The notes under the pieces: model-generated
Databases searched by the model: none
What the model was told of the DNA's origin: nothing
The model's input: only the letters and a program-made list of their open reading frames with translations
Source: Nanobdellota archaeon
GTDB lineage: Archaea; Nanobdellota; Nanobdellia; Woesearchaeales; CAZZGN01
Length of the DNA: 53,340 nucleotides
Assembly: GCA_051819665.1 (NCBI GenBank)
Contig: JBNJDG010000006.1
Location: forward strand, 1-53,340
Direction of reading: 5' to 3'
Shown: positions 4,508 to 50,999 of the stretch, piece after piece
How positions within the stretch are numbered: position 1 is the stretch's first letter
Layout of the letters: the number at the start of each line of letters is the position of its first letter
Made by a program: the position numbers and the translations under genes

Positions 4508-5719
4508 TTACAGATCAAGCCTCTCCTCGAGAATCTTCCTCACTTTGGTCAACGATGATGGTGAAAGGGAAGGCGTTATCTCCCTCGTCCTTCCGTGTCT
4601 GCCTTTTGAGATGATCTTCGCGTTTATTATCCCCATCATATCCAGCTCACCCAGGATATCAGATACCCTTCTCTGGGTGATGGGCCTCAGGTTCGTGGAA
4701 GTGCACGTGCTCTTATAATTATCATATACATCCCCTGTATACAAAGGACTGTTATCCTTTGGATTGTACTGGGAGAATACAGAATACAGTACTACCTGGA
4801 ACTGTTTGGGCTGGGCATCAACAAGGTCTATGACCTTATCCTTCTCTATCTTCTCCTCTGCCTTATCTATGAAGTCCATGGTTATCTGGGTCTTGCCGTC
4901 CCTTTCAGCTAACTCACCAGCAACCCTGAGAAGCTCTAAAGCTCTCCTGGCATCCCCATGATCCCTGGCAGCGTAAGCCGAACATTTCTCGATGACACCA
5001 TCATCAAGAGAACCCTCCTTGAAAGCCCCCGCAGCTCTTTTCTTGAGGATCTGCTGCAACTGGACCGCATTATAAGGCGGGAAGACTATCTCCTCTTCAG
5101 AGAGGGAGCTCTTTATCCTTGGATCAAGGGAATCAGCAAAGAGAAGATCGTTAGAGATACCTATTATCGATATCTGCCCCTTGCTCAGTTCAGAATTCAT
5201 ACGGGTGAAATTATAAAGAACCTCATCCCCGGCCTTCCTTACAAGCTGATCGAGCTCATCAAGAACCAGTATGACAACCTGCTCCTTCGAATCTATAACA
5301 TCAAAGAATACTTTGTAGATCTCATCGGTCGGAAGACCTGTGGGAGGGATGCTCTTACCCATCTCCCTGCATAGATGTGCCATGAGCCTGTATTCAGTAT
5401 CCGCGACTTTCTTCAGTTTACAATTGATATAGAATATTGTAAGAGGAATATCTTTCTGATTAGCCACCTGCTGCATCTGATCAGTCACATTCTTCACCGA
5501 CAGGGTTTTTCCTGTACCTGTCTTTCCATATGCAAAAATATTGGAAGGTCTTTCCAGTCTCAGACTGGGAGCTATCACATTAGCAATCTGGTTTATCTCA
5601 TTCTCCCTGTGAAGTATATCTTCAGGTACATAAGATGATTGCAGAACTTTCTTGTTCTTGAAAAGAGGTTCTCTTGTAAGATATTTTTCAAAGAATCCGA
5701 CTAGATTATTATTTCCCAT
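4508..5719 (-). CDS. cdc6: Orc1/Cdc6 replication initiator
   Basis: Walker A GKTGTGKT, Walker B LVLDELD, GDARRAL, C-terminal winged helix ending SKGRHGRTR. Confidence 0.97.
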   Translation of the reverse strand: MGNNNLVGFFEKYLTREPLFKNKKVLQSSYVPEDILHRENEINQIANVIAPSLRLERPSNIFAYGKTGTGKTLSVKNVTDQMQQVANQKDIPLTIFYINCKLKKVADTEYRLMAHLCREMGKSIPPTGLPTDEIYKVFFDVIDSKEQVVILVLDELDQLVRKAGDEVLYNFTRMNSELSKGQISIIGISNDLLFADSLDPRIKSSLSEEEIVFPPYNAVQLQQILKKRAAGAFKEGSLDDGVIEKCSAYAARDHGDARRALELLRVAGELAERDGKTQITMDFIDKAEEKIEKDKVIDLVDAQPKQFQVVLYSVFSQYNPKDNSPLYTGDVYDNYKSTCTSTNLRPITQRRVSDILGELDMMGIINAKIISKGRHGRTREITPSLSPSSLTKVRKILEERLDL

Positions 5720-5725
5720 TGTCTC

Positions 5726-6019
5726 GTTCCATAAGAACAGGGGGTTTATATTATTTTTCCTTTAACGGCACACCCCCACACCATTATTTCCTGTGGAAAA
5801 AATTCATTAATTAAAATTAATTCTTTTATTTGAAGTAAAAGAAAAGAAAATTCTCTTTCTCCCATCAAATCTTATTATTTTATTATTTTCTATATAGAAA
5901 ATTATTATTATTATTATTAATGATATATTATGAAATATAACTATAATACCATAAAGAAAACAACAAAAGATATTTCATACGAAAAAAAGTTCCATGAGAA
6001 ACAAAGGTGTCAGGGTGCC
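5726..6019. other. Chromosomal replication origin (oriC): inverted ORB elements flanking an AT-rich unwinding element
   Basis: ORB on - strand 5767-5798 TTCCACAGGAAATAATGGTGTGGGGGTGTGCC; ORB on + strand 5989-6019 GTTCCATGAGAAACAAAGGTGTCAGGGTGCC; about 190 bp of very AT-rich DNA between them; third ORB-like site at 5726-5745; directly upstream of cdc6. Confidence 0.88.
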
Positions 6020-26345: not shown

Positions 26346-26348
26346 ATC

Positions 26349-26708: not shown

Positions 26709-26709
26709 A

Positions 26710-26727
26710 ACTACATAATTTTGTAGT
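26710..26727. promoter_or_regulatory. Inverted repeat, candidate operator of the HxlR-type regulator
   Basis: ACTACA-TAATTT-TGTAGT immediately upstream of the regulator start, within the divergent promoter shared with the hydrogenase operon. Confidence 0.5.
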
Positions 26728-26819
26728 CCCCTTTTAAATATTTTTTCTTACATAATATACGAAAAAGTATACTTACGGTGAACGCACTGTATATTTACGC
26801 TTTAAAAAAGGTGGTGAAT

Positions 26820-26984
26820 ATGTCTAAGAAAGAGAAATGCAAGGAGCTTATGACTAAATTCTTTGGCCCTGCATCTGCCGCTCAGGTGGATTCCATGGGA
26901 GAAGACGAATGTGTAGAGAAGTGCAGGTCAAAGGTAGCTGGTTTCCTTGGTGAAGAGAAGGCCAAGGAGTTTGACAGCATTTAG
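26820..26984 (+). CDS. Small 54-aa protein heading the hydrogenase operon
   Basis: SD-like GGTGGTG before ATG 26820; MSKKEKCKELMTKFFGPASAAQVDSMGEDECVEKCRSKVAGFLGEEKAKEFDSI. Confidence 0.7.
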   Translation: MSKKEKCKELMTKFFGPASAAQVDSMGEDECVEKCRSKVAGFLGEEKAKEFDSI

Positions 26985-27010
26985 GATAATAAAAAAAGAG
27001 GTGTGTATTT

Positions 27011-29412: not shown

Positions 29413-29493
29413 GCAGGTCTTCTATTTTTTCTTTTTTGTATTTAACACTGATTCTTAGAAAGATATTTAAATCATTGTTCAGGGTGAGTTCAT

Positions 29494-29952
29494 ATGGCAG
29501 TCAAGGTATTTTTTATAGGGAACATGCTTGGTGGTGACGATGGTATTGGCCCGAGGCTTTATTATGCTATGAAGGATGATCCGGAACTTAAGGATTATGA
29601 GATGATGGAGATGGGAGTCATAGGTTTTGATCTTATCTCATATATCGAAGAGGGGGATAAAGTAATAATCGTCGATGCCATTCATTCAAATGAAAAAGAA
29701 GGAGAGGTTGTTGTGCTTGGGGAGGAAGACCTTTCTCCGGAGATGTCCCTTGTTTCCCAGCATGACTTTGGTGTCGAAGAGACAGCGGCCATGCTGAGAA
29801 GGTACTCACCTGAGCTGAAGAAGATACACATTATAGGTATAAATGTGACTTCTACAGATAGTTATTCAAAGGAATTATCTGAGAACATAAGTAAGAAGTT
29901 CGATAAGATAAAAAAAGAGGTATCAGAGAAGATACTCTCTCTATCGGAGTGA
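29494..29952 (+). CDS. Hydrogenase maturation endopeptidase (HybD/HycI family)
   Basis: GNMLGGDDGIG, IIVDA, SQH. Confidence 0.92.
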   Translation: MAVKVFFIGNMLGGDDGIGPRLYYAMKDDPELKDYEMMEMGVIGFDLISYIEEGDKVIIVDAIHSNEKEGEVVVLGEEDLSPEMSLVSQHDFGVEETAAMLRRYSPELKKIHIIGINVTSTDSYSKELSENISKKFDKIKKEVSEKILSLSE

Positions 29953-29958
29953 TTTAAG

Positions 29959-30237
29959 ATGTGTTATGCAATACCTGCAAAGATACTCGAGATGGACGGG
30001 GAGATAGCCAGAGTGGATTATGGCGGCGTAATAAAGAAAGTTAATATCTCCCTCGTGGATGATGCTAAGACAGGGGATTCTGTCCTTATCCATGCAGGCT
30101 TCGCGATAGAGAAGCTTGATAAGAAATCCGCGGAAGAAGCGATGGAGACGATAAGGAGGGACCTTTCCCAGTTCTCGGAAGAGGATTTCAGGATCAAGGA
30201 AGAGATGGAGAGATGGAAAAAACAAAGGAGCATCTAG
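29959..30237 (+). CDS. hypC: Hydrogenase chaperone HypC
   Basis: MCYAIPAKI, GDSVLIHAGFAI. Confidence 0.95.
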   Translation: MCYAIPAKILEMDGEIARVDYGGVIKKVNISLVDDAKTGDSVLIHAGFAIEKLDKKSAEEAMETIRRDLSQFSEEDFRIKEEMERWKKQRSI

Positions 30238-31229
30238 AGGAAATAAGGAAAACCGCGAAAGATCTCGGTAATGTTACTTTGATGGAGATCTGCGGGGGCC
30301 ATACTAATGTAATTATGAAATATGGTATAAGAGATATCCTGCCAGACAATGTGAATCTGATCTCCGGGCCGGGATGTCCTGTTTGTGTAAGCAGCAGGCA
30401 TGATATAGACTGTATGATAGAGCTGGCGAAAGAAGGCGTCCCTGTAGCTACATATGGGGATATGATGCGCGTTCCCGGGTCAGAATATTCTCTGGAGGAT
30501 ATAAGCGCAGAGACAGGCAGGGTGTTTGAGGTCTATTCTACTACTGAGGTCTTAAAACTGAAGGAAGATTATCCTGACATTGTGTTCTTTGGCATTGGTT
30601 TTGAGACGACTGCCCCAATGACTGCTTTCCTCCTAAAGAAAGGAGTGACAGTTTATTCAGTGCATAAGATCGTGCCCCCTGCCCTGAAGATACTTTCATC
30701 AGGTGATGTGAAGATTGACGGGTTCATCGATCCGGGACATGTATCAACTATTATAGGAAGTAAGGCATATGAGGATATAAAGGCCCCTCAGGCGATAGCC
30801 GGATTCACTCCCGAAAGGATCCTCCGTTCGATAAGCGTGCTTCTGAAGCTTATAAGTGAAAATAAGCCGGTCACGATAAATGCGTATCCTGAATCTGTAT
30901 CAGAGAAAGGCAATGAGAAAGCAAAGAAGATGCTGGCCGAGCACTTTGAGATTGTTGATTCTGAATGGAGAGGACTTGGTACATTACCTGGTTCAGGTCT
31001 TGAGGTCAAGGACCCGGAACTTAATGCAAAATTAAAATATAAAAGGATAATTGATAAGGTGCCCGAACCGAAAAAGACGGCTTGCAGATGTGGGGAAGTC
31101 CTGAAAGGGCAGATAGAACCAACAGGATGTCCTCTTTACAGGAAGGTGTGCACACCAGAGAGTCCTCATGGAGCATGCATGGTCTCGGAAGAGGGTAGCT
31201 GTGCTATCTCTTACAGGTATGGAAAATGA
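30213..31229 (+). CDS. hypD: Hydrogenase maturation protein HypD
   Basis: MEICGGH, GPGCPVC, GFETT, PGHVS, C-terminal Cys cluster GACMVSEEGSC. Confidence 0.96.
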   Translation: MEKTKEHLEEIRKTAKDLGNVTLMEICGGHTNVIMKYGIRDILPDNVNLISGPGCPVCVSSRHDIDCMIELAKEGVPVATYGDMMRVPGSEYSLEDISAETGRVFEVYSTTEVLKLKEDYPDIVFFGIGFETTAPMTAFLLKKGVTVYSVHKIVPPALKILSSGDVKIDGFIDPGHVSTIIGSKAYEDIKAPQAIAGFTPERILRSISVLLKLISENKPVTINAYPESVSEKGNEKAKKMLAEHFEIVDSEWRGLGTLPGSGLEVKDPELNAKLKYKRIIDKVPEPKKTACRCGEVLKGQIEPTGCPLYRKVCTPESPHGACMVSEEGSCAISYRYGK

Positions 31230-32188
31230 AAGATAAGATAACTTTAGCTCACGGTTCAGGCGGGAAGGAGATGGATGAGCTTATCTCTAAGTTTTCTTTC
31301 CCGAAAGGTAACTGGACGAATCATGATGATGATTCTGCTGTCATGAGATTCGGCGATAAGAATCTTGTTTTCACGACAGATTCGTTCACAGTGGACCCGC
31401 TCTTCTTTCCCGGTGCGGATATAGGTCATCTGGCGTTCTCAGGGACGGTTAATGATCTATGCGTCATGGGGGCAAGACCCCTCGGGCTTTCTTTGAGTTT
31501 CATTATTGAAGAGGGCTTCAAGAGAAAGGATCTTGACCGCATCGTGAGTTCGATAAGACAACTTTCTGAAGAATACGATGTGCCTGTCGTGACAGGAGAC
31601 ACCAAGGTGATGAGCAGGGGAAAGATAGATGGGATAGTTATCAATGTTTCAGGCACAGGTATTGCTGATGAGATCCTTGATGGTCAGCCCGAAGAAGGTG
31701 AAAAGATCATCCTTTCAGGTGGCCTCGGCGAGCATGCGGTCTCTCTCCTGTCCAAGAGGTTTGATTATGAGACAGATCTTGTCTCTGATTCAAAACCTAT
31801 GATTGATGAGCTCCTGGCCGTAAAGGATATGATAAAGATAGCCAAGGACCCTACAAGAGGGGGCGTTGCTGCGGTTCTCAATGAGCTTTCCGATAAGAAG
31901 AACATAGCCGTGCATATTGATGAGGGGAAGATCCCTGCTAAGAGGGAGGTAAGGACGGTTGTTGATATGCTCGGGATAAACCTTTACGAACTGGCATGCG
32001 AGGGACGCTTTGTATGTGTTGCCGAGAAAGGGAAAGAAGAACAGGTTTTGAAAAAGCTTAAGGGTTTTAACGAGGATGCTGCTATCATCGGCGAAGTGAA
32101 GGAGGGGGATAAAGTTCATATAAACACAGAACTGGGATCAAGGATCCTGCCCAAGCCTACTGGTCGGATAGTGCCAAGGATATGTTAG
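31226..32188 (+). CDS. hypE: Carbamoyl dehydratase HypE
   Basis: LAHGSGG, TTDSF, GDTKV, DPTRGG, C-terminal PRIC. Confidence 0.96.
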   Translation: MKDKITLAHGSGGKEMDELISKFSFPKGNWTNHDDDSAVMRFGDKNLVFTTDSFTVDPLFFPGADIGHLAFSGTVNDLCVMGARPLGLSLSFIIEEGFKRKDLDRIVSSIRQLSEEYDVPVVTGDTKVMSRGKIDGIVINVSGTGIADEILDGQPEEGEKIILSGGLGEHAVSLLSKRFDYETDLVSDSKPMIDELLAVKDMIKIAKDPTRGGVAAVLNELSDKKNIAVHIDEGKIPAKREVRTVVDMLGINLYELACEGRFVCVAEKGKEEQVLKKLKGFNEDAAIIGEVKEGDKVHINTELGSRILPKPTGRIVPRIC

Positions 32189-32197
32189 GGTGAGAAT

Positions 32198-32539
32198 ATG
32201 CACGAATTATCCATAACAAAGAAGCTTGTAGAGATGCTCAAGGAGACGTGTCTTGAGGAAGGCATAAAAGAACCTGGACGTGCTTATCTTGAGCTTGGCA
32301 GGATGACCGGCTTCAGGAAAGATCCGATACAATTTTATTTTGAATCATTCAGGAAAGAGGAACCGATGCTTGCAGGCATGAAGCTGGATATCGAAGAGAA
32401 AGATACAGAGATAAAGTGTAATGCTTGTAACCGGGAGAGCATTATAGAGGATCTGTGCATGATCTTCTGTCCTCATTGCGATTCGAATGATGTTGATATA
32501 ATTGCAGGGAAGGATTTTAAGATAAAAAATATTGAATGA
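32198..32539 (+). CDS. hypA: Nickel metallochaperone HypA
   Basis: MHELS N-terminus and two CxxC motifs. Confidence 0.95.
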   Translation: MHELSITKKLVEMLKETCLEEGIKEPGRAYLELGRMTGFRKDPIQFYFESFRKEEPMLAGMKLDIEEKDTEIKCNACNRESIIEDLCMIFCPHCDSNDVDIIAGKDFKIKNIE

Positions 32540-32569
32540 AAGGATTCAGAAATTATTGAAGGTGATATT

Positions 32570-33316
32570 ATGTGTCAGGAATGCGGATGTGGCGTCTATG
32601 ATCCGGACAAGGATGGTAAGGCTCAGGATAAAGGTGATGAGAAGCAATCAGTTTCAGTGGAAAAATCAATAATAAAGGAGAATGACAGGCAGGGAGAGAA
32701 ACTTGCAAAGATGCTCAAGGACAAGGGCATCCTGTGTGTTAATGTTCAGGGTTCTCCCGGTTCGGGAAAGACCACTCTCATAGAGAACACAGCAAAGATA
32801 CTGGGTTCGGATGAGATGGCAGTCATACAGGGGGATCTTGAGTCTGAGGTTGATCTCAAGAGGCTTGAAGAGAAGGGTATAAGCACATTCCAGATAAACA
32901 CCCACTCAGGATGTCATCTTAACTCGGATATGATAAACAAGGCCCTTATCGATATGGACCTGAAGGATAAAAAATATCTTTTCATTGAGAATGTGGGGAA
33001 TCTTGTCTGTCCTGCCGGTGTTAAGATAGGTCAGCACATGAACATGGTCATCTCTTCCACGACAGAAGGCAGTGATAAGCCTAAGAAATATCCTGTGATC
33101 TTTAACGATGCTTCTCTGGTCGTCATATCGAAGATAGACATATCAGAGGCAGTTGAGTTTGATGAGGAACAATATAAGGCTGATATAAAGAACATAAACC
33201 CGAAAGCTGAGATAGTCAGGGTATCTTCAAAGAAACCGGAAACATTCGAAGGGGCAGCTCATAATATATCTCATGCCCGGGATCATCTTCTGGGTAATGA
33301 ACATCAGCATCACTGA
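32570..33316 (+). CDS. hypB: Nickel-insertion GTPase HypB
   Basis: MCQECGC, GSPGSGKT, GCHL, ENVGNLVCP, KPKKYP, SKID; His-rich tail. Confidence 0.96.
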   Translation: MCQECGCGVYDPDKDGKAQDKGDEKQSVSVEKSIIKENDRQGEKLAKMLKDKGILCVNVQGSPGSGKTTLIENTAKILGSDEMAVIQGDLESEVDLKRLEEKGISTFQINTHSGCHLNSDMINKALIDMDLKDKKYLFIENVGNLVCPAGVKIGQHMNMVISSTTEGSDKPKKYPVIFNDASLVVISKIDISEAVEFDEEQYKADIKNINPKAEIVRVSSKKPETFEGAAHNISHARDHLLGNEHQHH

Positions 33317-37005: not shown

Positions 37006-37923
37006 TTAATCCTCTTGTGGATTGTCCCTTATCACAAGGCTCTTCTGGATGATATCCTTGTACTTGTAACTAAGTTCAAGTGTGACCTGTTTCGTATAGA
37101 GGTCATCCTTGTCAAGCTGATCCGATTTGCACCTGATCTTGGCTTTACCATCATTGAGCCTTGAAACATTACCGCTTCCTGAACTTGAACAGTCAAAGCC
37201 AACATTCTCGTCGTTGCCTTCTGTCATCTCGAACTCAAACTTGTTATGCATCGAGTTGAACTCCTTTCCGGGTCTTGCGACTTCTCCACCTCCAACATTC
37301 TCCACATTGAAGATGAGGGTTATCTGTTTTGATCCGCCGGGTTGCTGCTTAACCTTCTTGACGGTAAGAGGTGCTCCGGAAGCGAAAACTTCCTTCTTCT
37401 CATCAAGTTTGCAGAGGCTGTCGTCCCTGTAATCACCTTTGAAGCATACGGAGGGCACTGATACATAAGTCTTGTAATCGTATTTCACTGTGGCGAAGAA
37501 ATCCGCTTCATGGGTCAGACCTCCGACATCTTCGAGCATGGCATTTCCGAAGCTTATCGTTTCCTGGCCGCCTCTTTCGTTGTATTCTGAAACCTTTTCA
37601 AGTTCTTCTTGATTGCTTTTCACTGGGTCATCTATCCCGAACATCTTTGTATCGATTCCCTGGATGGTCACATTAAGATCTCCTGGAGAGATGTCCTCTT
37701 CCCCTTTGTTCTTCACGGTTATTTCTACAGGGAACTCTTCGCCTTCCCAGACAGTCTGGACACCATTCACATCTGTGCCCATGACCTCGAAATTGGCGAT
37801 GACGCCCTGCGTACCTCCATAGTAGACAGGCGGTTCCACATCTGAACTTCCGTCTCCGCTGCCTTCGCAGCCGCTCAGTATCATGACTGCTGCAATTGCC
37901 ATTATAATGAATAATCTTTTCAT
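37006..37923 (-). CDS. Putative lipoprotein, paralog 1 of a tandem family
   Basis: Signal peptide with lipobox ILSGC; beta-rich Cys-paired domain shared with its neighbours. Confidence 0.8.
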   Translation of the reverse strand: MKRLFIIMAIAAVMILSGCEGSGDGSSDVEPPVYYGGTQGVIANFEVMGTDVNGVQTVWEGEEFPVEITVKNKGEEDISPGDLNVTIQGIDTKMFGIDDPVKSNQEELEKVSEYNERGGQETISFGNAMLEDVGGLTHEADFFATVKYDYKTYVSVPSVCFKGDYRDDSLCKLDEKKEVFASGAPLTVKKVKQQPGGSKQITLIFNVENVGGGEVARPGKEFNSMHNKFEFEMTEGNDENVGFDCSSSGSGNVSRLNDGKAKIRCKSDQLDKDDLYTKQVTLELSYKYKDIIQKSLVIRDNPQED

Positions 37924-37927
37924 ATTA

Positions 37928-38890
37928 TCACTCCTCGTAACCTCTTATCTCGATATTCCTTTTTATATGAGTCCTGTAACCATATTCAAGCTCTATGGAA
38001 AGGGATGTCTTGTATGCGCTTCCTCCTCCTATGTCCGGATATGTGCAAGATACTCTCCCTCCTCCTTCGCTGATCTTTATATTGTTTGAAGGCTCGCAGT
38101 TTTTTGTAATGGATTCCTCTCCGACCTGAACTTCTATAAGGTCCACTGTATTCATATCTGCCGGGCTGAAGCCGGTAGGTCTTTTCCTTGGTTCCCAGAT
38201 ATCCTGCAGATCTATAACATCGCCATTACCTGCATTCCTTATATTGAATGTGAACCTCATCTTATTTCTCATGTTGTCTACCTTGACATGAGATACTGTC
38301 ACCGGCGCGCCTTGTCCAGAGCCCATGCTTACATCCTGTGAAACACAGGCCTTGTCTCCATAGGATCTGTGTGGATTAGGGTCTATGCATACTGTATCTG
38401 AAGCGAGCGTCTCGTATTCGTAAAGTGCGTATATCATGATGGGAATCTGGTATTTTTCCGTCCCGCTTGGTAGGTTAATTTCCCCCGACTGTCTCTGGAT
38501 GAGTTTGTATCCCCCTTCTCTGTTGAATTGGCTCCTTCCCGGAAGCTCTCCAAAAGAGAGCCCTTGTGATGGATTAGGGAGATATGAATAAGCGTCCAGA
38601 TCCTGTCCTGTAGTTGAACTACCCGTGGTTCCTATGATCCCTGTATCATAACCTGTGATATACAGCCATCCTTCATTAATAGTATGAGCACCTTTATTGT
38701 AAAGCTCTAAACCGACAGGAAGAACATCTCCCTCATAAACAACCCTTGGTGGATTATTTTTCAGGAGCTTCATCTCAAGGCCCTGTGTACCTCTCCTGAA
38801 ATTAACATCCCCTTCTTCTGACTTTTCTGTAGAGCAGCCGCTGATAAGAACGATCATCAATACTATAATGAAGAGTACATGAGGCCTCAT
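37928..38890 (-). CDS. Putative lipoprotein, paralog 2
   Basis: Lipobox LISGC; GTQGLEM..NNPP, YEYET..VCIDP, GQGAPV, YGYR. Confidence 0.8.
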   Translation of the reverse strand: MRPHVLFIIVLMIVLISGCSTEKSEEGDVNFRRGTQGLEMKLLKNNPPRVVYEGDVLPVGLELYNKGAHTINEGWLYITGYDTGIIGTTGSSTTGQDLDAYSYLPNPSQGLSFGELPGRSQFNREGGYKLIQRQSGEINLPSGTEKYQIPIMIYALYEYETLASDTVCIDPNPHRSYGDKACVSQDVSMGSGQGAPVTVSHVKVDNMRNKMRFTFNIRNAGNGDVIDLQDIWEPRKRPTGFSPADMNTVDLIEVQVGEESITKNCEPSNNIKISEGGGRVSCTYPDIGGGSAYKTSLSIELEYGYRTHIKRNIEIRGYEE

Positions 38891-38914
38891 ATATACCCAC
38901 TCTCCGGTTTTTCA

Positions 38915-39832
38915 TTATTTAAAGTTTTCGTTTTCATTGGCCAAGATCTTTATTTCTTTAGAATCAGATATTGTGTAGCCATATGAAAGATCAAGGTTGA
39001 TTGATGTTATATAGGAAGTGTCCCTTTTTTCCAGGGCTTCTTTCGGTTTGCATCTTGCTCTCCCTTCATCCCTTACTTTTATCCTCTGTGGTTGACAGTC
39101 CATCCTTTTCCCGGCTATCTTACCGGTGATATCTACAGTATTGAAGTATTCTTCCCTCATCTCACCATCACCACAGAAAGCTTTCAGAGAGTTGTCGTCG
39201 ATGATCCTCCCTCTGCCTTTGTTCCTGATGTAGATCTCGAATACGGGTTTTATATTTCCTTCTTCATCCTTGCTCATTGTCTGCTCAATCCTGGTTATGG
39301 CAACAGGAGCTCCCTGTCCGGAAAAGCTCTGGTCCTTAACAGTACATGGCTTATCTATGTCCTTCAGGTTGTAAACATCAGGGTCTATGCATACCTCTGT
39401 ATCAAGATGGGTCCCGTATTCGTAACATATGCTTGTAAGGATCTTAGAGGAGTGGATACTGCTCATCTCCTCAAGCTCTTTCGTGGTGCTGTAAAACATC
39501 CATTCGTCCCTTTTCCCATCAGGACTGTACCTTGACTTACCCTCAAGAGTAAAACCATAACTCCCATGGAAAGGCTTTTCTATATAAGCGTCTTCCACTG
39601 TTATTGACAAAAGTCCATCTCCAATATCATGGGCACCTTCATTCTTCATCTCTATGCCAATAGGCACTTCCTGCCCTTCAAAGAATTCTCTCGGGGGAGC
39701 ATTATCTATAAAATCCATCCTCACTCCTCTTGTGCCCTTATAGGGGTCAAAATCCTTTATTGCCCCTCCGCTGCATCCGGCAAGAGCAAGTGAGAGAATT
39801 ACTATTATCAGGATGATGCCTCTTTTTTCCAT
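38915..39832 (-). CDS. Putative lipoprotein, paralog 3
   Basis: Lipobox LAGC; GTRGVRM..NAPP, YEYGT..VCIDP, GQGAPV, YGY. Confidence 0.8.
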   Translation of the reverse strand: MEKRGIILIIVILSLALAGCSGGAIKDFDPYKGTRGVRMDFIDNAPPREFFEGQEVPIGIEMKNEGAHDIGDGLLSITVEDAYIEKPFHGSYGFTLEGKSRYSPDGKRDEWMFYSTTKELEEMSSIHSSKILTSICYEYGTHLDTEVCIDPDVYNLKDIDKPCTVKDQSFSGQGAPVAITRIEQTMSKDEEGNIKPVFEIYIRNKGRGRIIDDNSLKAFCGDGEMREEYFNTVDITGKIAGKRMDCQPQRIKVRDEGRARCKPKEALEKRDTSYITSINLDLSYGYTISDSKEIKILANENENFK

Positions 39833-39867
39833 ATTATCCTCTGCCTGGTCTTATTTTATAAATCTTT

Positions 39868-41346
39868 CTAATCCCCTTTCACATGGAAAGTCTTGTGAGC
39901 ATTAGTGAGGTAATCGTAATCTGCAATGACCCTTATGTATTTGGTTGAAAGAGGGGCAGAGCCCACGATGGCAGTCTTTTTCCTTGAATAAAGCGGGCAT
40001 GAGATTGTCCTGTATCTTTTTATCTCGCCTATGTCCTCTTTAAGCTTATAGAAAAAATAACGTTGGCATTCATCTATGCATCCTTCATCTCCTTCACATC
40101 TGTCTGCGCATCCTGATTCGGTGAGAGGGACTTTTTCCATCTCATGGTCGCATCTCTCAAGTTTCAGTTTCATGCTCTTCGGGACCTGTATCTCAAGCTC
40201 GTTTATGTCCTTTATATGGCCTTCCCATCCGTTCTCCAAGGTTATACCGAGTCTCGCCAGTCTCTCATCATTCTTGCTCACAGGTATCGGCTGGTAATCT
40301 ACAGTCCCTATACCAATCTTGATCGGCCCGCTAGTGTAGACTGCGGTAGGGTTCCTGTCCTTTACATCGTATTCCTCCAGGGGATCAGTACCTTCTTTCC
40401 TCAATGCCCTCAGCCTGGCCTCTTCTATGAAGTACGCTTTGGTATAACCCAATGTGCTGAAATCATACTCGGCGAAGAAATTCACTTTGAATGTTCCTTC
40501 AGGCAGGTCATCGAAGACACAGTCCATGGATTTTTCCTCATAGCTGAATATGCTGAAGCTGTCATACCTGCCGTTTTCAGGATAGGTCCTCGTGGCATTG
40601 TCGCTGGAGTTGCATATCATCCTGACTTCCTTTTCCTTATCAAGGGTTTTACCCTTTACAGTAGCCCAGAAAGTCATCTCCTCACCTTCTTTAAGGATGG
40701 GGCTTGATGCTTTTATATCTTCTATATAGATACCCAGCCTCTCGTCCTTCTCGCCTTCTTCCACTCTGCCTGTGAAGTAACCGCCGCTGGCATAATCAAG
40801 CTGTTTTTTCGTGAAATTGCCCCAATTTGCTGCTGGATCCCAGTCTTTCCAGAAAGTAAGTGTCTCTGCGGAGCTTATCGCCACTTCCTTGCTTAATGAT
40901 TTAATTGAACCTTCGGACATTATTGCAGTGTCGCTCAATAATATCGGGGCTACAAAGTATACGAATGCAGCCACGATGCCTATGATGATTACGAACTGGG
41001 CAAGAGGGTATTCCCTGACAAATTTAGTGCGCATCAGTTCAATCAAAACTCCGATTATCAGGAAAGGATAGAAGAAATGGTTGAAGAAGAAATATATCGG
41101 TACGCCGATGAATAGGAGAATCAGGAAAAGCTTCAGGCCTTTGGATTCCCTGACCATCTCTGTCTGCATGAGCATCAGGAAGATCATCAGGCCGATGAAT
41201 GGGAAAAAGAAAGGGTTAAATAGTATGTATATGGCAACTCCTCCAATCACGGCAGCTATGAGAAGTTTTATCCATGTATTGCCATGTTCGCTCATGTGCT
41301 GCTTTACCGAATCCGCGCCTTGCTGGAGCGTGTCTTTGATCCCCAT
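39868..41346 (-). CDS. Membrane protein with repeated N-terminal TM segments and an extracellular Cys-containing domain
   Basis: Repeated TM unit (aa ~25-135) then a beta-rich domain with YDFST, SGPI, ADYDY, loosely resembling the downstream lipoproteins. Confidence 0.72.
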   Translation of the reverse strand: MGIKDTLQQGADSVKQHMSEHGNTWIKLLIAAVIGGVAIYILFNPFFFPFIGLMIFLMLMQTEMVRESKGLKLFLILLFIGVPIYFFFNHFFYPFLIIGVLIELMRTKFVREYPLAQFVIIIGIVAAFVYFVAPILLSDTAIMSEGSIKSLSKEVAISSAETLTFWKDWDPAANWGNFTKKQLDYASGGYFTGRVEEGEKDERLGIYIEDIKASSPILKEGEEMTFWATVKGKTLDKEKEVRMICNSSDNATRTYPENGRYDSFSIFSYEEKSMDCVFDDLPEGTFKVNFFAEYDFSTLGYTKAYFIEEARLRALRKEGTDPLEEYDVKDRNPTAVYTSGPIKIGIGTVDYQPIPVSKNDERLARLGITLENGWEGHIKDINELEIQVPKSMKLKLERCDHEMEKVPLTESGCADRCEGDEGCIDECQRYFFYKLKEDIGEIKRYRTISCPLYSRKKTAIVGSAPLSTKYIRVIADYDYLTNAHKTFHVKGD

Positions 41347-41347
41347 C

Positions 41348-42715
41348 TTATTCGCACAACGCTTCCTTGACAGTATCCTCGGACTTGCTTTCCCCGTAGA
41401 TCCTTGAGCCTTCGCATTTACAGCGCCAGCTGGTGTCTTCCACTTTGCCTTCGTTCTTCACGTAGATCTTGTTACCGTCTTCACAGAAATATCTGTAATC
41501 ATCAGCGTCATATTCAGGCACTAACCTGAGGACCATCTCTGCCACTTCGATCCTCTGGCCGTCAGGCTTCAGTTTCATCCAGTTGTCCTCTTCCTTGAGA
41601 TGGTCTGCGGGGATGATCCTGCTGTATTCTTCATCTTCTGATCTTATCTGTCTCTTATATCCGTTCACGTTCATTATAAGATCATAGTCGTCATTGGTCA
41701 CGAACTCGAAGGATACATTCGCGGAAAGCTCGCCGTTGACAATTTCTTCGTAATTATCCTTCAAATCAAAATAATAGACAGGGTAATCTATATCTTTCAG
41801 GTCTGTCCTCACTTCTATAAGGTCTATCAGATAGTCGCCCTTATCCGTCTTGAATAAGAGCTCGTTCTCTCCCTGTTCTACGTAAGTCGGAGGGAAGTCT
41901 ATCACATTGAGCATCTGGCAATCAGGTATGCCGTAATAGAGCTCCCTTGAGTTAAGCTTTATCTGGAGCTTACCTACCCTGCTCTGCTCGCAGTTGGGGC
42001 TGAATTTCAGTTTTGCCCTCTCTACATTATTTGCTTCGCTTCCCGAGACGAAGAAGGTGTTCTTGCTGTCCTGCTTAGAGAGATCGGTTATATCTCCGAT
42101 GACCCTCACATTCTCGAGGCTGTACTCATTGGTCTTCCAGAACCTTGCCCCTACGCTGGAGACGGAGAATTTTAGGGTGTTTGCTTCTGAGAGCATCTCT
42201 CCCGGCAACTCTATGGGATTGGGATTATATTCTTCTATATCCTTCTCGTATATTATGTTGCCATTGAGTTCTATCGTAAGTATTCCTTCATTCTTATTGG
42301 AAATGAAACCCAGCCTTACATCTTTCGTGTTTTCAGGATCCGGAATCTCGAAAGTCATCTCATGGGTTTTTTCCTTCATTATATTGTTTTTTATGATGAA
42401 AGGATTCTCTTCTTTGATCGTATTGGAATCTGTCGACCTGTACAGGGTGAAGCTCGATATCTCATGAGAGCATTCATTGCTCATACATTCTTTGATATCG
42501 TTTATATCAAGCCTGCCCGGTCTTTTGCGCATCACTTCTACTTCATTGAGCTCTTTATAATCTACCTGGTCCTCTGAAGGGCCTTCTATATCTTCCTCCA
42601 GAAGATCTTCTCTTACATTTGCGGGAAGGAATAGTATATAGAGTATTATTGCCAGAGCTATAAGTCCAACCAGGGCCGCAGCTCCTCCGGCTCCATCACC
42701 TTTTTTGGCTACCAT
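41348..42715 (-). CDS. Secreted or membrane-anchored acidic surface protein
   Basis: MVAKKG followed by a hydrophobic helix (class III signal-like); repeated beta-rich units (L.I.LN...IY, N.LKF). Confidence 0.75.
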   Translation of the reverse strand: MVAKKGDGAGGAAALVGLIALAIILYILFLPANVREDLLEEDIEGPSEDQVDYKELNEVEVMRKRPGRLDINDIKECMSNECSHEISSFTLYRSTDSNTIKEENPFIIKNNIMKEKTHEMTFEIPDPENTKDVRLGFISNKNEGILTIELNGNIIYEKDIEEYNPNPIELPGEMLSEANTLKFSVSSVGARFWKTNEYSLENVRVIGDITDLSKQDSKNTFFVSGSEANNVERAKLKFSPNCEQSRVGKLQIKLNSRELYYGIPDCQMLNVIDFPPTYVEQGENELLFKTDKGDYLIDLIEVRTDLKDIDYPVYYFDLKDNYEEIVNGELSANVSFEFVTNDDYDLIMNVNGYKRQIRSEDEEYSRIIPADHLKEEDNWMKLKPDGQRIEVAEMVLRLVPEYDADDYRYFCEDGNKIYVKNEGKVEDTSWRCKCEGSRIYGESKSEDTVKEALCE

Positions 42716-45342: not shown

Positions 45343-48051
45343 TCATATCCCTTTCATTATTTCCGGTAGTTCTTTGAAATCCTGTATAGAATGGTCTGCT
45401 CTTTCATCCTCCCCGAAGATTATCGTGGTCGCATTCATCTCCTTTGGTATGGCCAGGTCCTTATCAAAATCATCTCCTATGATCACGCATTCGTCCGCTT
45501 CGAGGTTGAATCTCTCGAAGACCTTCCTGTAATATTCCTTGCTTGGTTTCATCTTACCTATCTGGGGGGAAGTAATAACCATATCGAACTCGTTGATTAT
45601 GTCAAGGGCCTTAAGTTTCTCTTTGGTTAAGTTGTCTTCACTGAATACTATTTTCAGATAGTTCTTGAGAAGCGGAAGGGCCTCCCTGAATCCCTTGTTA
45701 AGCCTTATCTCTTTCATTATAGTGTTCTTGAATCTTTCATGCGCTTTATTATGATTCTTTGAACCTAGAGCTTCGGCAAGCCTTGCGTATGAGTATTCTC
45801 TTGTCCTCTTCTCCGGGTCTTTTTCTTTGATGAGTTCCTTGACGATCTCTTTCCATCTTTCATATGCCTTAGCAGGGTCATCAGAAAGCTCTTTCATGGC
45901 TTCCATATCGGCTTTTTCCGCAATCTCCTTAGTCCTGTATATAGTATTGTCTGCATCGAAGAGTATGGCCCTTATCAGCTTATCCCTGACAATATCCTCA
46001 TTCACGAGCTTGTATGGGAAGACCATCTTGCCCGGTTTAGAGGTTATGTTGTCCTCAATGGTCACATTCTCTCCTGTGAAAAGACCTGCCTTCCTGATGT
46101 TCGGGTTCACGAACCTCCCTTTAACATAAATGCTTTCAGGGTTTTCAGATTCTGTCCTGAAATTGTCTCCTATCGTATTGTCCTCTCCAAGGACGCTGGC
46201 GTCTATGAAACAGTCTTTCCCTATCTTGGTGCCTCTCATTACCACTGAATCCCTTATCCTTGTCCCTTTGCCTATATAACCGTCTATAGAGCAATAACCT
46301 TCTATCTTGACATCATCAGCGATGACAGCTCTGGGAGAGACATAACTTTCTCTGCTTATCTCCGCGTTCCCTATATTATTGCTGAGATGGCCTCCGCCGA
46401 ATCTCCTTAGCATAAGCCTGTTGACTTCCAGGATGTTCCATGCCCTCCCCAGATCAACCCTGGTGGCTTCTGTTATCCAGTACTCTACATCGGAGTTTTC
46501 CATAAGATAAGCCTGGGGTGGTTTATTTGGCTTGATACCTTCTCTTTCAAGTGCATTGAATAACACATCTGCATTGATTATACTCAGGCCTACATTTGCG
46601 AGATTAGAGGGAGCGTTCTCTTTCGGTTTCTCTTTTATGCCTTTGATCTTCTCCCCCTCGAATTCTATTATTCCGTATTCACTTGGGTCTTCTACCCTTC
46701 TTAGTGTAAGTACGTTCTTCTCGTCCCTGTGTTTGTCAAGGATCTTTCTCGTCTCATCATCTGAAGATATGCTGTCTCCGTATTTTAGTATGAAGATGCT
46801 GTGCTTTATATGCTCTCTTGCAGAATATATGGCATCTGCAGGCCCTCTCTGTTTTTCCTGTATGACGAATTTTATATCTGCTGTATAATTGTTGGCAAAG
46901 TAGCTTCTTATCTGTCTTATGTTGTCCTTATTGCATACAATGGTGATGTCTTCAATTCCATTATCGAGCATCTCATCCACATGGTGTGCCAGGAGGGGTT
47001 TCCCGAGGAAAGGGATCATCGTCTTTGATTTGGATAATGAGAAAGGCTTCATCCTCGTTCCATTGCCTGCGGCAAGAATCAGGCCTTTAACTTCCTTCTT
47101 CACCAGGCCCATAAGGGCATCAGCAGTTTTCCCCGGATCATGCCTTATGCTGCTCACCTTGTTCCATTCGGCCTTTTTCCCTTCCTTCTTCAGGATATCT
47201 CTCTCGATAATCTCTGTCCTTATGTTCTCTTTGTCCTTCTTTATCTCATATCCTCCTTCTTTCTCGTATTCTTTGAGAATCTCTCTCGGAATTGGGCCCT
47301 TATGGAGAAGCACATAATCCAGTCCTCCGCAGTATCTTGAAGCCTCGTTTACGTGTTCCGAGGCACTATATCCGTCTGTCTGGCCCGCCTGGGTGATCAT
47401 ATTGGAGACGAATACTTTCTTTCCTTCGGTCTCCATCATGGCTTTCCTTAAACCGGGAAGGAGGAAGTGGACAAGAACACTTGTATAGAGGCTCCCCGGC
47501 CCTATGACTATGAGGTCTGCTTTCTTCACTGCATTAATGGCGTCCTTTGTGGCTTCCGCATCCTCATCCTTCAGGAATATCTTCTTTATTTTCGATTTGT
47601 TTGGGGCTCTTACATTGAGCTCTTCCTCCACGATGCTTCCGTCTTCAAGTTCGGCACACACATGGGTGTTCTTCTCAGTAGAAGGTATTACCTTCCCATG
47701 TATCCTCAGGATCTCACTCATATGCTTGATGCCCTTACTAAGACTGCCTTCCACCTTGGTCATTGCTGTCAGCAGAAGGTTCCCCATGCTCATGCCTTTC
47801 AGATCCTCTCCCTTGTCGAACCTGTACTGTAGAACATCCTTGAAGAGGGGCTCAGAATCAGACAAGGCTATAAGGCAGTTCCTTAGATCTCCCGGGGCAG
47901 GGATATCGAAATTCCTCCTGATGACCCCTGTGCTCCTTCCCGAGTCTGTGACAGCGACGATTCCTGTAATGTTACAGTCATATTCCTTGAGTCCTCTGAG
48001 GATCTCGGATTGTCCGGTTCCTCCTCCGATGCAGACGATATTCGGTTTCAT
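45343..48051 (-). CDS. Fusion: YvcK/GlmR (CofD-like) + sugar-phosphate nucleotidyltransferase + LbH + HAD hydrolase
   Basis: aa 1-318 IGGGTG, DSGRSTG, PGDLRN, GPGSLYTS, RHDP; aa ~320-555 LILAAGNGTRMKP, KTMIPFLGKP, YGD, EKP; hexapeptide region; aa ~697-902 ILFDADNT, KP, IGDDFDKDL. Confidence 0.9.
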   Translation of the reverse strand: MKPNIVCIGGGTGQSEILRGLKEYDCNITGIVAVTDSGRSTGVIRRNFDIPAPGDLRNCLIALSDSEPLFKDVLQYRFDKGEDLKGMSMGNLLLTAMTKVEGSLSKGIKHMSEILRIHGKVIPSTEKNTHVCAELEDGSIVEEELNVRAPNKSKIKKIFLKDEDAEATKDAINAVKKADLIVIGPGSLYTSVLVHFLLPGLRKAMMETEGKKVFVSNMITQAGQTDGYSASEHVNEASRYCGGLDYVLLHKGPIPREILKEYEKEGGYEIKKDKENIRTEIIERDILKKEGKKAEWNKVSSIRHDPGKTADALMGLVKKEVKGLILAAGNGTRMKPFSLSKSKTMIPFLGKPLLAHHVDEMLDNGIEDITIVCNKDNIRQIRSYFANNYTADIKFVIQEKQRGPADAIYSAREHIKHSIFILKYGDSISSDDETRKILDKHRDEKNVLTLRRVEDPSEYGIIEFEGEKIKGIKEKPKENAPSNLANVGLSIINADVLFNALEREGIKPNKPPQAYLMENSDVEYWITEATRVDLGRAWNILEVNRLMLRRFGGGHLSNNIGNAEISRESYVSPRAVIADDVKIEGYCSIDGYIGKGTRIRDSVVMRGTKIGKDCFIDASVLGEDNTIGDNFRTESENPESIYVKGRFVNPNIRKAGLFTGENVTIEDNITSKPGKMVFPYKLVNEDIVRDKLIRAILFDADNTIYRTKEIAEKADMEAMKELSDDPAKAYERWKEIVKELIKEKDPEKRTREYSYARLAEALGSKNHNKAHERFKNTIMKEIRLNKGFREALPLLKNYLKIVFSEDNLTKEKLKALDIINEFDMVITSPQIGKMKPSKEYYRKVFERFNLEADECVIIGDDFDKDLAIPKEMNATTIIFGEDERADHSIQDFKELPEIMKGI

Positions 48052-48317: not shown

Positions 48318-49268
48318 ATGTATGGTCAGCAGAAGGACACATATATCATGAAGAGGAGTGGAAAGGGATTCGTTTACTCTCCTGCCAGGATGCTGGAGAA
48401 TCCGGAAAGCCTTAAGGTGATAAGCAGTCCTGTAAGGATAAGGATCCTTTCCCTGCTTTCACAAAGGGGCATGTACCCTTCAGAATTGTCAGGATCTCTC
48501 GGAATGAATGAGCAGAAGGTGTATTATCATCTTAAGCAGCTCCATAACCAAGGGGTTCTTGAGGTCATCGAGAAGAAAGAGATAAGAGGGGCTGTGGCGA
48601 AGAAGTACGCTTCTTCTGTCCTGAATTTTGCTGTCTCTCTGGGTGATTCCTGGGAGCCTTTATCCAATCTGAAAGAGACGACTACAAAAGGCGAGAGGTT
48701 CCTGAGGGAATTTGTCAGGGACGGGCAGTTCAACGGTTATGTTGTGGTGGGTAGCCCAGATCCACACGGTTCTTTCAGGGCCTATGCGAGAGATGGCCAT
48801 TATGCGATAGATCTCTCTATGTTCCTCGGGAGACATTGTTCTCTTGCAGATTCTTTCAGCGTAAAACTTGATGTTGATGTCATGAACGAGAAGGCCCGTA
48901 ATGAGAACTTAGTGCTTGTCGGAGGGCCTGTTACAAATATGCTTGTCTCTGAGGTGAACTCTCATCTCCCTGTGCGTTTCAGTGATAAGAGACCCTGGGG
49001 TCTTTACAGTACAAAGACTGGCAAGCACTATACGGACGATACAGTCGGGCTTATAGCCAAGATACCGAATCCTTTCAATCGGGAGAAGTCGATAATCCTT
49101 TTGGCGGGGATAAGGTACATAGGTACAAAGGCTGCTGTGATGGCGCTGACCAGGAAGGTTTCACTTTTGCTCAAAGACTATGGGGACAGCAGGGCATGGT
49201 CTTCTGTAGTCCAGGGTTTCGATCTTGACAGTGATGGGAAGATAGATTCGGTAGAGATACTTGAATGA
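48318..49268 (+). CDS. ArsR-type wHTH regulator with a C-terminal ligand-binding-like domain
   Basis: SSPVRIRIL, YPSELS, EQKVYYHLKQL; C-terminal VVGSPDPHG, NLVLVGGPVTN, AGIRYIGT; divergent from the glm operon. Confidence 0.82.
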   Translation: MYGQQKDTYIMKRSGKGFVYSPARMLENPESLKVISSPVRIRILSLLSQRGMYPSELSGSLGMNEQKVYYHLKQLHNQGVLEVIEKKEIRGAVAKKYASSVLNFAVSLGDSWEPLSNLKETTTKGERFLREFVRDGQFNGYVVVGSPDPHGSFRAYARDGHYAIDLSMFLGRHCSLADSFSVKLDVDVMNEKARNENLVLVGGPVTNMLVSEVNSHLPVRFSDKRPWGLYSTKTGKHYTDDTVGLIAKIPNPFNREKSIILLAGIRYIGTKAAVMALTRKVSLLLKDYGDSRAWSSVVQGFDLDSDGKIDSVEILE

Positions 49269-49439
49269 TCTTATGAATTGTTAGAGAATTCTCTGGCCAT
49301 TTAGCCTGTTTCCCTTTATACAAAGGGTCTTTGTGACTGCAGGGTTCATGATTTAATAGTGCCTAACCGCTTAACGTCGTGAATAACCTCTCACTTTTTG
49401 ACATAAAATATATAAATATGTCTGGGATTTTATCAATAT

Positions 49440-50201
49440 ATGTTCGGAATATTCAGGAAAAAGAAGTCAGTAGAGAAACTGAACCGTAATCTTAATTTTG
49501 CATTCTCCAAGCTTGATAATGACATAAGTAATATGCAGGCATGGGTGAATCATCTTAAGGAGAGGAATGAAAACATAGAGTACTCTCACTCTTCCCATGT
49601 GGATCTTACAAGAAGGGATCTTGATTCTCTCTCAAAATGGATGAGGTACCTTTACAATCACAGCATGCAGCTGCATAACAGGTTCAGGGACATGTCCTCG
49701 TATATAAAGAACCTTGAGAAAAACCATAATGCCCTTCAGGAAAGGCTTGCAGAGGTGGAGAAGAGGGTTGAGGGACATGAGAGGACACTTGAGGACAATA
49801 GGAAGGGACATGGGGGTCCTGATTCGAATAATTTTCAAGGACAAGTCAGGGACAAGTCAGGGACAAGTCGAGGACAAGTCGAGGACATGTCCTCGAAATC
49901 TGAGGACATTGATGAAGAGGGTGATAATGCCCCTGATCTGTCTCCTAAGAAAGCATTTAAGGTTAATAGGTCTGCCCTTACCGGTAGTCAGCTTGAATTT
50001 CTTAATCTTCTTTATCATGCAGACCGTCCTCTTTCTTATGAAGAGATATCAAATATGCTCGGGAAGAAAAGTAAAAGTGTGAGAAACCTTATATATGGTC
50101 TTCGTAGCAAGGGTTTAGAGATAAAAAATAAGTATGTTGGTCTTCGTAAAAAAGGGTTTTATATTGATAAGAAAGAGAAACTTAAGTTAACAGGAAGGTA
50201 A
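49440..50201 (+). CDS. Coiled-coil plus C-terminal winged-helix DNA-binding protein with an internal DNA repeat array
   Basis: TATA-like ATATATAAA at about 49408-49416; N-terminus MFGIFRKKK; heptad region aa ~10-112; wHTH LTGSQLEFLNLL..LSYEEISNMLGKKSKSVRNLIYGLRSKG. Confidence 0.85.
   Translation: MFGIFRKKKSVEKLNRNLNFAFSKLDNDISNMQAWVNHLKERNENIEYSHSSHVDLTRRDLDSLSKWMRYLYNHSMQLHNRFRDMSSYIKNLEKNHNALQERLAEVEKRVEGHERTLEDNRKGHGGPDSNNFQGQVRDKSGTSRGQVEDMSSKSEDIDEEGDNAPDLSPKKAFKVNRSALTGSQLEFLNLLYHADRPLSYEEISNMLGKKSKSVRNLIYGLRSKGLEIKNKYVGLRKKGFYIDKKEKLKLTGR
49688..49908. repeat. Intragenic array of GGACA motifs with 10-11 bp phasing
   Basis: GGACA at 49688, 49773, 49783, 49793, 49806, 49839, 49850, 49861, 49872, 49883, 49904; palindrome GGACATGTCC at 49688 and 49883. 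Confidence 0.92.
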
Positions 50202-50276
50202 TGTTTTTCTATATTCTCTTGTTGGATGGTCTATCCAATACATGTTTTTACATACTTCCGTTCTTTTGGTTTTAAT

Positions 50277-50383
50277 GACTTGTCCTGTCCTTGAGGACAT
50301 GTCCTCATGTCCCTAATTTTGAGGACATCTGAGGACATTAAGGGACATCTGGGGACAAGTCAGGGACATGTCCTCAGTTGTCC
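50277..50383. repeat. Intergenic array of the same GGACA/TGTCC motif
   Basis: GGACA at 50295, 50323, 50333, 50343, 50353, 50364; TGTCC at 50281, 50286, 50300, 50308, 50369, 50379; perfect palindrome TGAGGACATGTCCTCA at 50292-50307. Confidence 0.92.
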
Positions 50384-50483: not shown

Positions 50484-50999
50484 TTATATGAGGGCCTTTA
50501 GCCTTTCCTTTGCTTTTTCCAGAGTTTCTTCTGGTTTGCCGGTAGTGTCTATCTCTATTATCTTATGTCCGTTTTCTCTTGCTTCAGTGAGGATCGTCTC
50601 GAAAATCTCTGAATCAAGGTTCTCCCTTACTTTTTCCTGGCTGTATCCTCTTTTGGTGAGTCTCTCTTTCAATTGTTTAAGTTCGGTCCTGCAAACAATA
50701 CAGGCCGGGCTCATCTCTTCAGGGAGATAATGTGCCAGGTGTCCTTCTATCAGGATAGTGTCCTCACTTTTTGCGATCTCTTCTTTAAGTATTTTTGCCA
50801 GTTTCTCTGTATCTACTTCATATGTGTCTCTTTCTCTGTCATATCTTTCGAAGAGATCATGTTTTCGGGCGAAATCAGTGAGGTTTATCAGCTTTTTTTT
50901 AAACGAAAGTGAGAGTTTTTTTGCCAGGGTGGATTTTCCGGTTCCAGGTGTGCCTGTTACAAGTACTGCTTTTTTTGCTCTTTCTCCCTTTCTTTTCAT
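50484..50999 (-). CDS. Adenylate kinase AK6/Fap7-type
   Basis: VTGTPGTGKST, IEGHLAH, RLTKRGYSQEKVRENLDSE. Confidence 0.9.
   Translation of the reverse strand: MKRKGERAKKAVLVTGTPGTGKSTLAKKLSLSFKKKLINLTDFARKHDLFERYDRERDTYEVDTEKLAKILKEEIAKSEDTILIEGHLAHYLPEEMSPACIVCRTELKQLKERLTKRGYSQEKVRENLDSEIFETILTEARENGHKIIEIDTTGKPEETLEKAKERLKALI

Follow-up and report, generated by a model that had tools for sequence, protein, structure and literature searches.

Phage and plasmid initiators of the lambda O type have their iterons as phased direct repeats in the linker-coding part of their own gene, and in the SegAB and ParABS systems centromere-like cis sites lie beside the gene of the binding protein. Most DPANN archaea are uncultured, and chromosome positioning, replication and segregation in them are, to our knowledge, open questions. 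At oriC3 of Sulfolobus, the winged-helix protein WhiP has its binding sites both in repeats of its own ORF and in the downstream intergenic region (PMC3607249). RicO combines a winged helix–turn–helix (wHTH) with a coiled coil and an amphipathic helix and binds sites close to the origin (10.64898/2026.03.06.710092).

The locus analysed here (positions 49440 to 50383) lies in a contig stretch of 53,340 nucleotides from a Nanobdellota archaeon, referred to below as the window. It shares the layout of WhiP, an archaeal winged-helix protein with repeats in its own ORF and downstream, and its family, too, is associated with origins (PMC3607249; 10.64898/2026.08.15.744077). However, WhiP is described with a tandem winged helix, AT-rich repeats and mapped initiation, whereas we find a single C-terminal wHTH, a 120-aa helix and a candidate membrane helix, with phased 5-bp half-sites that contain GC; an unwinding tract is lacking, and the canonical Cdc6 origin candidate lies at another place. 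Searches of Pfam, NCBIfam and the PDB, whose libraries may hold no WhiP model, gave no WhiP match. With RicO, RocS and RacA of Firmicutes the protein has in common a three-part build, of which the membrane part is a candidate here, a disordered linker and origin-proximal sites (10.64898/2026.03.06.710092; PMC4914108). Yet in those proteins the DNA-binding domain is N-terminal (MerR-type in RocS), an order that is reversed here, and the sites are dispersed over 600–700 kb (nine ricS, 25 ram), in contrast to the dense array that the present gene contains and that continues behind it. Foldseek, Pfam, NCBIfam and the PDB gave no match that would relate the protein to any of the three by sequence.

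As with lambda O, phased direct repeats occupy linker-coding DNA in the gene of the binding protein, here a probable one, although the present repeats are chromosomal, are conserved between housekeeping genes, consist of 5-bp half-sites and have no adjacent AT-rich tract. There was no specific PHROG match (best E 1.8e-5), no relative in the viral contigs searched with alignment A1, and neither a mobile context nor a Rep-family initiator. Cis sites adjoin the gene as in SegAB and ParABS, but no Walker ATPase partner is adjacent, the flanking genes coding for an ArsR fusion and a kinase, and Pfam and NCBIfam searches gave no ParB or SegB family match. The preliminary description had noted that no ParA/SegA ATPase is adjacent; indeed, the two AAA_31 (ParA/MinD-type) matches in the genome sit on other contigs (C5 and C13). 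Finally, the array locus differs from an Orc1/Cdc6-dependent oriC in having neither an ORB nor an AT-rich unwinding tract. By the tests run, the array module belongs to none of WhiP, RicO/RocS/RacA, lambda O, ParABS and SegAB, and we found no description of this gene–array system in the literature searched, mostly outside subscription papers. The Ori-Finder-Arch preprint gives Nanobdellota origins in its supplement, which may include some of the ORB sites discussed below (10.64898/2026.08.15.744077).

The gene and its GGACA arrays

The source genome (G000) amounts to 1.12 Mb; other G numbers are relatives' genomes and L numbers are loci. The features of the locus, and of the origin candidate in the same window, are the following.

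49440..50201, + strand: gene of a 253-aa helix/coiled-coil, linker and C-terminal winged-helix protein, subfamily A (ORF, AlphaFold model, Foldseek)
49440..49466, + strand: aromatic/basic N-terminus MFGIFRKKK, candidate membrane-inserting helix (sequence pattern)
49446..49805, + strand: long helix, aa 3–122, predicted coiled coil (AlphaFold pLDDT mostly >90; weak coiled-coil family matches)
49809..49958, + strand: disordered linker, aa 124–173, encoded in part by the repeat (AlphaFold pLDDT <50)
49977..50192, + strand: winged helix–turn–helix, aa 180–251 (AlphaFold model, Foldseek, HTH_11, motif co-variation)
50070–50108, + strand: recognition helix, aa 211–223 (AlphaFold model, Foldseek, HTH_11, motif co-variation)
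49688..49908, + strand: intragenic array of 11 same-strand GGACA copies in 10–11-bp phase, with two full palindromes (sequence)
50281..50383, no strand: downstream array of 12 half-sites in both orientations, two full palindromes among them, between convergent genes (sequence)
49409..49416, + strand: TATA-like box about 25–30 bp 5′ of the ATG (sequence), in line with archaeal promoter spacing
48318..49268, + strand: conserved upstream neighbour, an ArsR-type HTH fused to an S-layer-like domain (domain matches, relatives' loci)
50484..50999, − strand: conserved convergent neighbour, a nucleotide kinase, AAA_18 (domain matches, relatives' loci), probably AK6-like
4508..5719, − strand: orc1/cdc6 gene, beside the DNA polymerase D small subunit gene (context)
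5773..5960, − strand: ORB-like box (5773–5799) with an AT-rich tract; canonical oriC candidate, separated from the array locus by 44 kb

The GGACA copies on the + strand of the ORF start at 49688, 49773/83/93, 49806, 49839/50/61/72/83 and 49904; two TGTCC are also present in the ORF, both as parts of palindromes. The 12 downstream half-sites lie 79–182 bp past the stop codon and include 50323/33/43/53/64. An exact recount agrees with the preliminary description on copies, positions, phasing and the double orientation of the downstream array, as well as on the palindrome GGACATGTCC, found four times across the locus (49688, 49883, 50295 and 50364). That description had placed all 11 intragenic copies in the linker-coding part: all are in the gene, but according to the AlphaFold model only six fall in the linker (aa 124–173), with four where the long helix ends and one within it. 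The two arrays are the densest 150-bp clusters of GGACA in the 1.12 Mb genome, with 12 and 11 copies, the next having five. In a random control of 400 windows of 1,500 bp, the best 200-bp cluster of any 5-mer had at most eight copies, and at least seven were reached in 20 windows.

Contigs of runs X1 and X2, which come from one study, cross the intragenic array without letter changes or gaps; of the four runs considered, X3 and X4 give little cover and in all four the downstream array is outside the cover. Contigs from RNA libraries are no proof of transcription. The agreement of the X1 and X2 contigs, together with the recurrence of the layout in 24 genomes, argues that the arrays are not an assembly artefact.

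The AlphaFold model of the protein is one helix, a disordered stretch and a winged helix, and Foldseek returns generic wHTH matches (best E 1.5e-4), MarR/ArsR-type regulators, which backs the C-terminal wHTH proposed earlier. The 253-aa protein has no Pfam match below E 0.001, and NCBIfam, PHROGs, the PDB and the Atlas gave generic coiled-coil and HTH matches only; HTH_11 is matched by 15 of the 40 members of alignment A3. The aromatic/basic N-terminus, also noted before, proves to be a trait of the family, its pattern occurring in 67 of 155 family proteins compared with 13 of 777 long ORFs of the source genome. A homodimer prediction gave a score of 0.28, the mark being 0.42, and counts neither for nor against a dimer.

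The genome-wide motif scan found the densest clusters at this locus, 44 kb from the oriC candidate, but no conserved dispersed sites. The palindrome occurs nine times in the genome (1.0 expected), five times outside the locus, four or five of these in coding sequence. Outside the locus it ranks 65th of 1024 palindromes, a 5-copy GGACA cluster at window position 13625 is not kept in 23 homologous genes, and a single copy of the palindrome is present in 320 kb of G163, and likewise of G168. Dispersed sites or a regulon were rejected on these grounds. The 5-copy cluster lies in the linker of a 350-aa conserved protein with no Pfam match (window 12998–14050), present in 23 of the 25 genomes searched, whose homologues are often about 5–30 kb from cdc6.

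The window contains further features: an AbiEi/AbiEii type IV toxin–antitoxin-like pair just past the oriC candidate (6508–8030), NiFe hydrogenase and hyp maturation genes (23798–33316), a run of five large − strand genes with absent or weak Pfam matches (37006–42715) and a 902-aa fusion of CofD-like, nucleotidyltransferase, hexapeptide and HAD domains (45343–48051). An ORF cut by the contig end (52953–53340) combines an aromatic/basic N-terminus with Pro/Gly/Gln-rich tandem repeats of 63 bp and adjoins an archaellin-like gene.

Recognition helix and array motif across the family

By sequence matches, the protein family is spread through its DPANN (Woesearchaeota-like) order. At E 1e-4, alignment A2 has matches in 253 of the order's 401 genomes, and alignment A4, at 1e-6, in 238 of 401. 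Both tallies mix paralogues and include genomes marked unpublished, which carry none of the other claims. Of nine named records with relatives, five are labelled Woesearchaeota, Nanoarchaeota, Nanobdellota or Nanoarchaeia and four 'uncultured Methanosarcinales'; the Atlas neighbours of the protein are mostly Nanobdellota. The source is thus probably a Woesearchaeota-like DPANN archaeon. Members were sorted into A (the 49440..50201 gene), B1 (which shares the N-terminal part of A, and often its neighbours, but has another helix), B2, a short B3 and C. The usual site of subfamily A and part of B1 is between the ArsR/S-layer fusion gene and the convergent kinase gene. Type C had no array in the four loci examined. 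B2 and C also occur as a pair with phased TGGGA/TCCCA arrays beside a methyltransferase-like gene, often with XerA (L197, L204–L206, L210–L212, L215–L217, L220 and L222–L234), and B2 arrays are mostly upstream, in promoter position. A short ORF at G000:C14:7196-7453 (L084) resembles the N-terminal helices of the family only and has no winged helix.

We classed 106 loci by helix sequence, an array being defined as at least six copies in 200 bp. All 24 loci with a K[ST]xRN helix (17 genera and ten families, as labelled by the tool) have a GGACA array, compared with none of the 34 other subfamily-A loci with a classified helix; outside the K[ST]xRN class such arrays are found only in three of 26 CSKS loci, whose motif contains GGACA. 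The other helices go with other motifs: NT-RV with AATGC (8/9), NY-TVKN with TGACA (4/7), YGTIKN with GTAAC (2/5), T-K/RVY (n = 5) with CGTTA in three, CGTAA in one and AATGC in one, NT-KNH/Q (n = 6) with GTCTA in four and GACTA in one, CGRT (n = 15) with GAACC in nine and CGGAC in three, and CSKS with TGGGA (21/26). Most motifs are also present as abutting palindromes. The homologues thus have arrays of their own that co-vary with the recognition helix, a match to be read as co-variation and not as a count of independent events, since helix classes and motifs were defined after viewing the loci and kin share both. As the other helix classes carry other motifs, the protein very probably binds its own arrays.

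The earlier proposal that the repeat is held at the DNA level, and not at the protein level, is borne out in the GGACA class. Same-strand distances peak at 10–11, 21–22, 32–33, 43–44 and 54–55 bp, a period of about 10.8 bp that is not a multiple of three, and codons are fixed in the linker: Gly is GGA in 34 of 35 cases (61 of 146 elsewhere in the same genes), Thr is ACA in 38 of 38 (66 of 128 elsewhere) and Asp is GAC in 26 of 30 (61 of 138 elsewhere). The conserved-looking linker peptide is the motif translated in three frames. A tree built on N-terminal sequence, with 48 rows and no more than seven per class (proteins shorter than 185 aa, unclassified rows and B3 rows excluded), is poorly resolved and requires 15 label changes, with a minimum of seven and a shuffled mean of 34. 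It lends weak support to the idea that specificity may have switched repeatedly within the family.

Relation to replication origins

The family is linked to replication origins. In ten of 57 genomes subfamily A is no more than 60 kb from cdc6, compared with 2.1 expected from contig cover, and the same holds in eight of 26 families, compared with 1.4 expected (p 3e-5), in a count that excludes five A genomes without a cdc6 match and one unpublished genome and that favours genomes with long contigs; for subfamily B the figure is 0 of 43 (2.5 expected). Where neither usual neighbour is in view, eight A loci are at 8–75 kb from cdc6 and 14 more have cdc6 on another contig. The kinase gene is near cdc6 even in genomes whose wHTH gene has another position (39 genomes gave a match, with both genes on one contig in 13 cases, at 14–259 kb, five within 60 kb), so that origin proximity may be inherited gene order. 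Array position is not uniform in the family, since B2 arrays are 189–360 kb from cdc6 in the four same-contig cases. XerA adjoins 11 of 28 B2 loci versus none of 60 A loci; its adjacency is no proof of a terminus, because it is also beside four of 23 cdc6-proximal loci in other orders.

Across the class, 44 of 151 genomes were matched. In its other orders a paralogue is convergent with an A-like gene that again has arrays of its own. An ORB core is within 22 of 23 such loci, in 17 of these 22 inside the linker-coding DNA of the paralogue, and cdc6 is 3.5–15 kb away in 22 of 23. At L264:2329-3141, and at 16 more of L263–L285, the coding ORB box is read as a conserved-looking peptide and is followed by 4-bp tandem repeats. 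Subfamily B3 adjoins eight of 20 ORB sites picked for lying at least 10 kb from cdc6, with half-sites interleaved around the ORB, and among the first-found B3-like genes an ORB is alongside in five of eight. Such loci, distant from cdc6 and with the ORB surrounded by TGAGAC half-sites (L089, L158, L239, L241–L246, L248, L250, L254 and L260), are candidate second origins.

The 49440..50383 locus itself does not look like an origin. With an ORB consensus rebuilt from 27 sites, the only strong ORB-like match in the source genome is the box at 5773–5799, and no ORB-like site is present at the array locus; scores of at least 15 occur near three of 62 A-classed loci, all of one genus, 100–200 bp upstream of the A gene. 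The AT maximum is 0.73 at the array locus versus 0.95 at the oriC candidate, and no AT-rich unwinding tract is seen at the former. Past the gene, the median AT excess is 0.11 in 23 loci; the values for comparison are 0.18 for 25 ORB sites and 0.14 for 705 background gene ends. The cumulative third-codon GC skew of G163 keeps falling across the array, at 58 kb, without an inflection there, and reaches its minimum at cdc6, at 112 kb. The skew of G168 is flat before the array and rises after it, which we graded as ambiguous, as is that of G085; in G017 there is a clear switch at cdc6/ORB near 765 kb, and a B2 array (437 kb) is mid-arm. The source genome also contains two weak Cdc6_C matches with an internal stop (G000:C31:1023-1214 and C61:1633-1821).

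Possible functions of the array module

We may wonder at this stage what such a module does. Our best explanation, held with a little less than even confidence, is a self-encoded, origin-proximal, centromere-like membrane anchor akin to RicO, RocS and RacA. The protein would self-associate through its long helix, while its winged helices would read the 5-bp half-site GGACA, a step to which the co-variation points strongly. The 10-bp palindrome may seat a dimer, and the half-sites phased at 10–11 bp could line further subunits on one face of the DNA in two arrays about 400 bp apart. With the aromatic/basic N-terminus inserted into the membrane, the complex would fix the chromosome to the cell envelope at a single origin-proximal place, in the manner of a point centromere, and gene and site would travel and change together. 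This anchor reading is based on the invariable GGACA arrays of the K[ST]xRN class, their phase of about 10.8 bp and the fixed linker codons, on the helix–linker–wHTH architecture with its enriched N-terminal pattern, and on the proximity of subfamily A to cdc6, seen also without the kinase neighbour. Counted against it are the absence of dispersed sites like ram or ricS, the N-terminal pattern in only 67 of 155 proteins, the lack of a partner ATPase or polar protein linked to the gene, and the many Woesearchaeales genomes without a subfamily-A-type match.

The same arrays could instead be iterons, the protein being either an initiator that, like WhiP, serves a second origin, or else an accessory factor or regulator that marks or gates Orc1-dependent origins. 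The repeats and downstream sites bound by WhiP (PMC3607249) form the same layout, and this origin-factor reading is strongest for the ORB-overlapping paralogues: the facing gene pairs of other orders, close to cdc6, and B3 beside eight of 20 ORB sites away from it. The ORBs upstream of the A gene in three genomes of one genus and the skew of G168 also agree with it. For the present locus we nevertheless consider it unlikely, because an ORB-like site is found at only three of 62 A loci and is absent here, no AT-rich tract is seen, only 20–76 bp separate the stop codon from the next gene in some homologues, and the skew of G163 falls straight across the locus. Moreover, the protein has one wHTH and no ATPase, and a coiled coil and candidate membrane helix are absent from the WhiP description consulted. 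The Orc1-independent initiator put forward in the preliminary description is weakened by the missing ORB, AT-rich tract and (in G163) skew inflection, and by the Cdc6 gene, ORB and AT-rich tract 44 kb away. The lack of an ORB and of an AT excess, with the skew minimum of G163 at cdc6, favours the anchor over an initiator.

Somewhat less probable still is a transcription regulator acting on itself, by roadblock or looping between the arrays, and perhaps on its neighbours, with chromosome position incidental. The Foldseek matches are MarR/ArsR-type regulators, B2 arrays are mostly in promoter position, and operators linked to their gene would account equally well for the helix–motif co-variation. 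However, the GGACA-class arrays are inside and downstream of the gene, at least five copies within 300 bp upstream being found in three of 23 loci, all of one genus; no GGACA array is in the promoter region of the 49440..50201 gene, which weakens the promoter-type autoregulation suggested earlier. The downstream array lies between convergent genes, the genome-wide scan gave no regulon sites, and some 23 phased half-sites with a 120-aa helix would exceed the needs of an operator. Two phased arrays and a long helix would also suit a nucleoid anchor without membrane contact, bridging or wrapping the arrays as a fixed loop, a boundary between domains or a site at which SMC or other machinery is loaded, and paralogues do sit at different landmarks, ORB for B3 and XerA for B2. 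We hold this to be very unlikely in view of the enriched aromatic/basic N-terminus and of the neighbours examined, among which no SMC or partner gene was seen. Linkers tolerate repeat slippage, but neutral expansion, a mobile-element relic or an assembly artefact is largely refuted, and scarcely credible to us: the layout is conserved in 24 genomes of ten families, its phase is non-triplet, synonymous codons are fixed and the motif follows the helix; independent contigs match, and alignment A1 found no relative in viral contigs.

A wider reading, plausible though on the doubtful side, is that Nanoarchaeia have an undescribed family of membrane-attached winged-helix proteins whose arrays, in or beside their own genes, mark chromosome landmarks. 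It would have arisen at oriC and diversified into origin-gating, origin-proximal point-centromere and Xer-linked members, with at least ten helix–motif pairs forming a recognition code. The analysis names a protein family, gives its predicted binding sites exactly and adds natural specificity variants, and thereby opens binding, helix swaps, membrane attachment and the interplay with Orc1 to in vitro testing. ORB boxes hidden in coding regions, and second ORB sites at a distance from cdc6, matter for origin prediction in the class. If the wider reading is true, the family would be the first chromosome-positioning system for these ultra-small archaea, one that needs no ParA/SegA motor.
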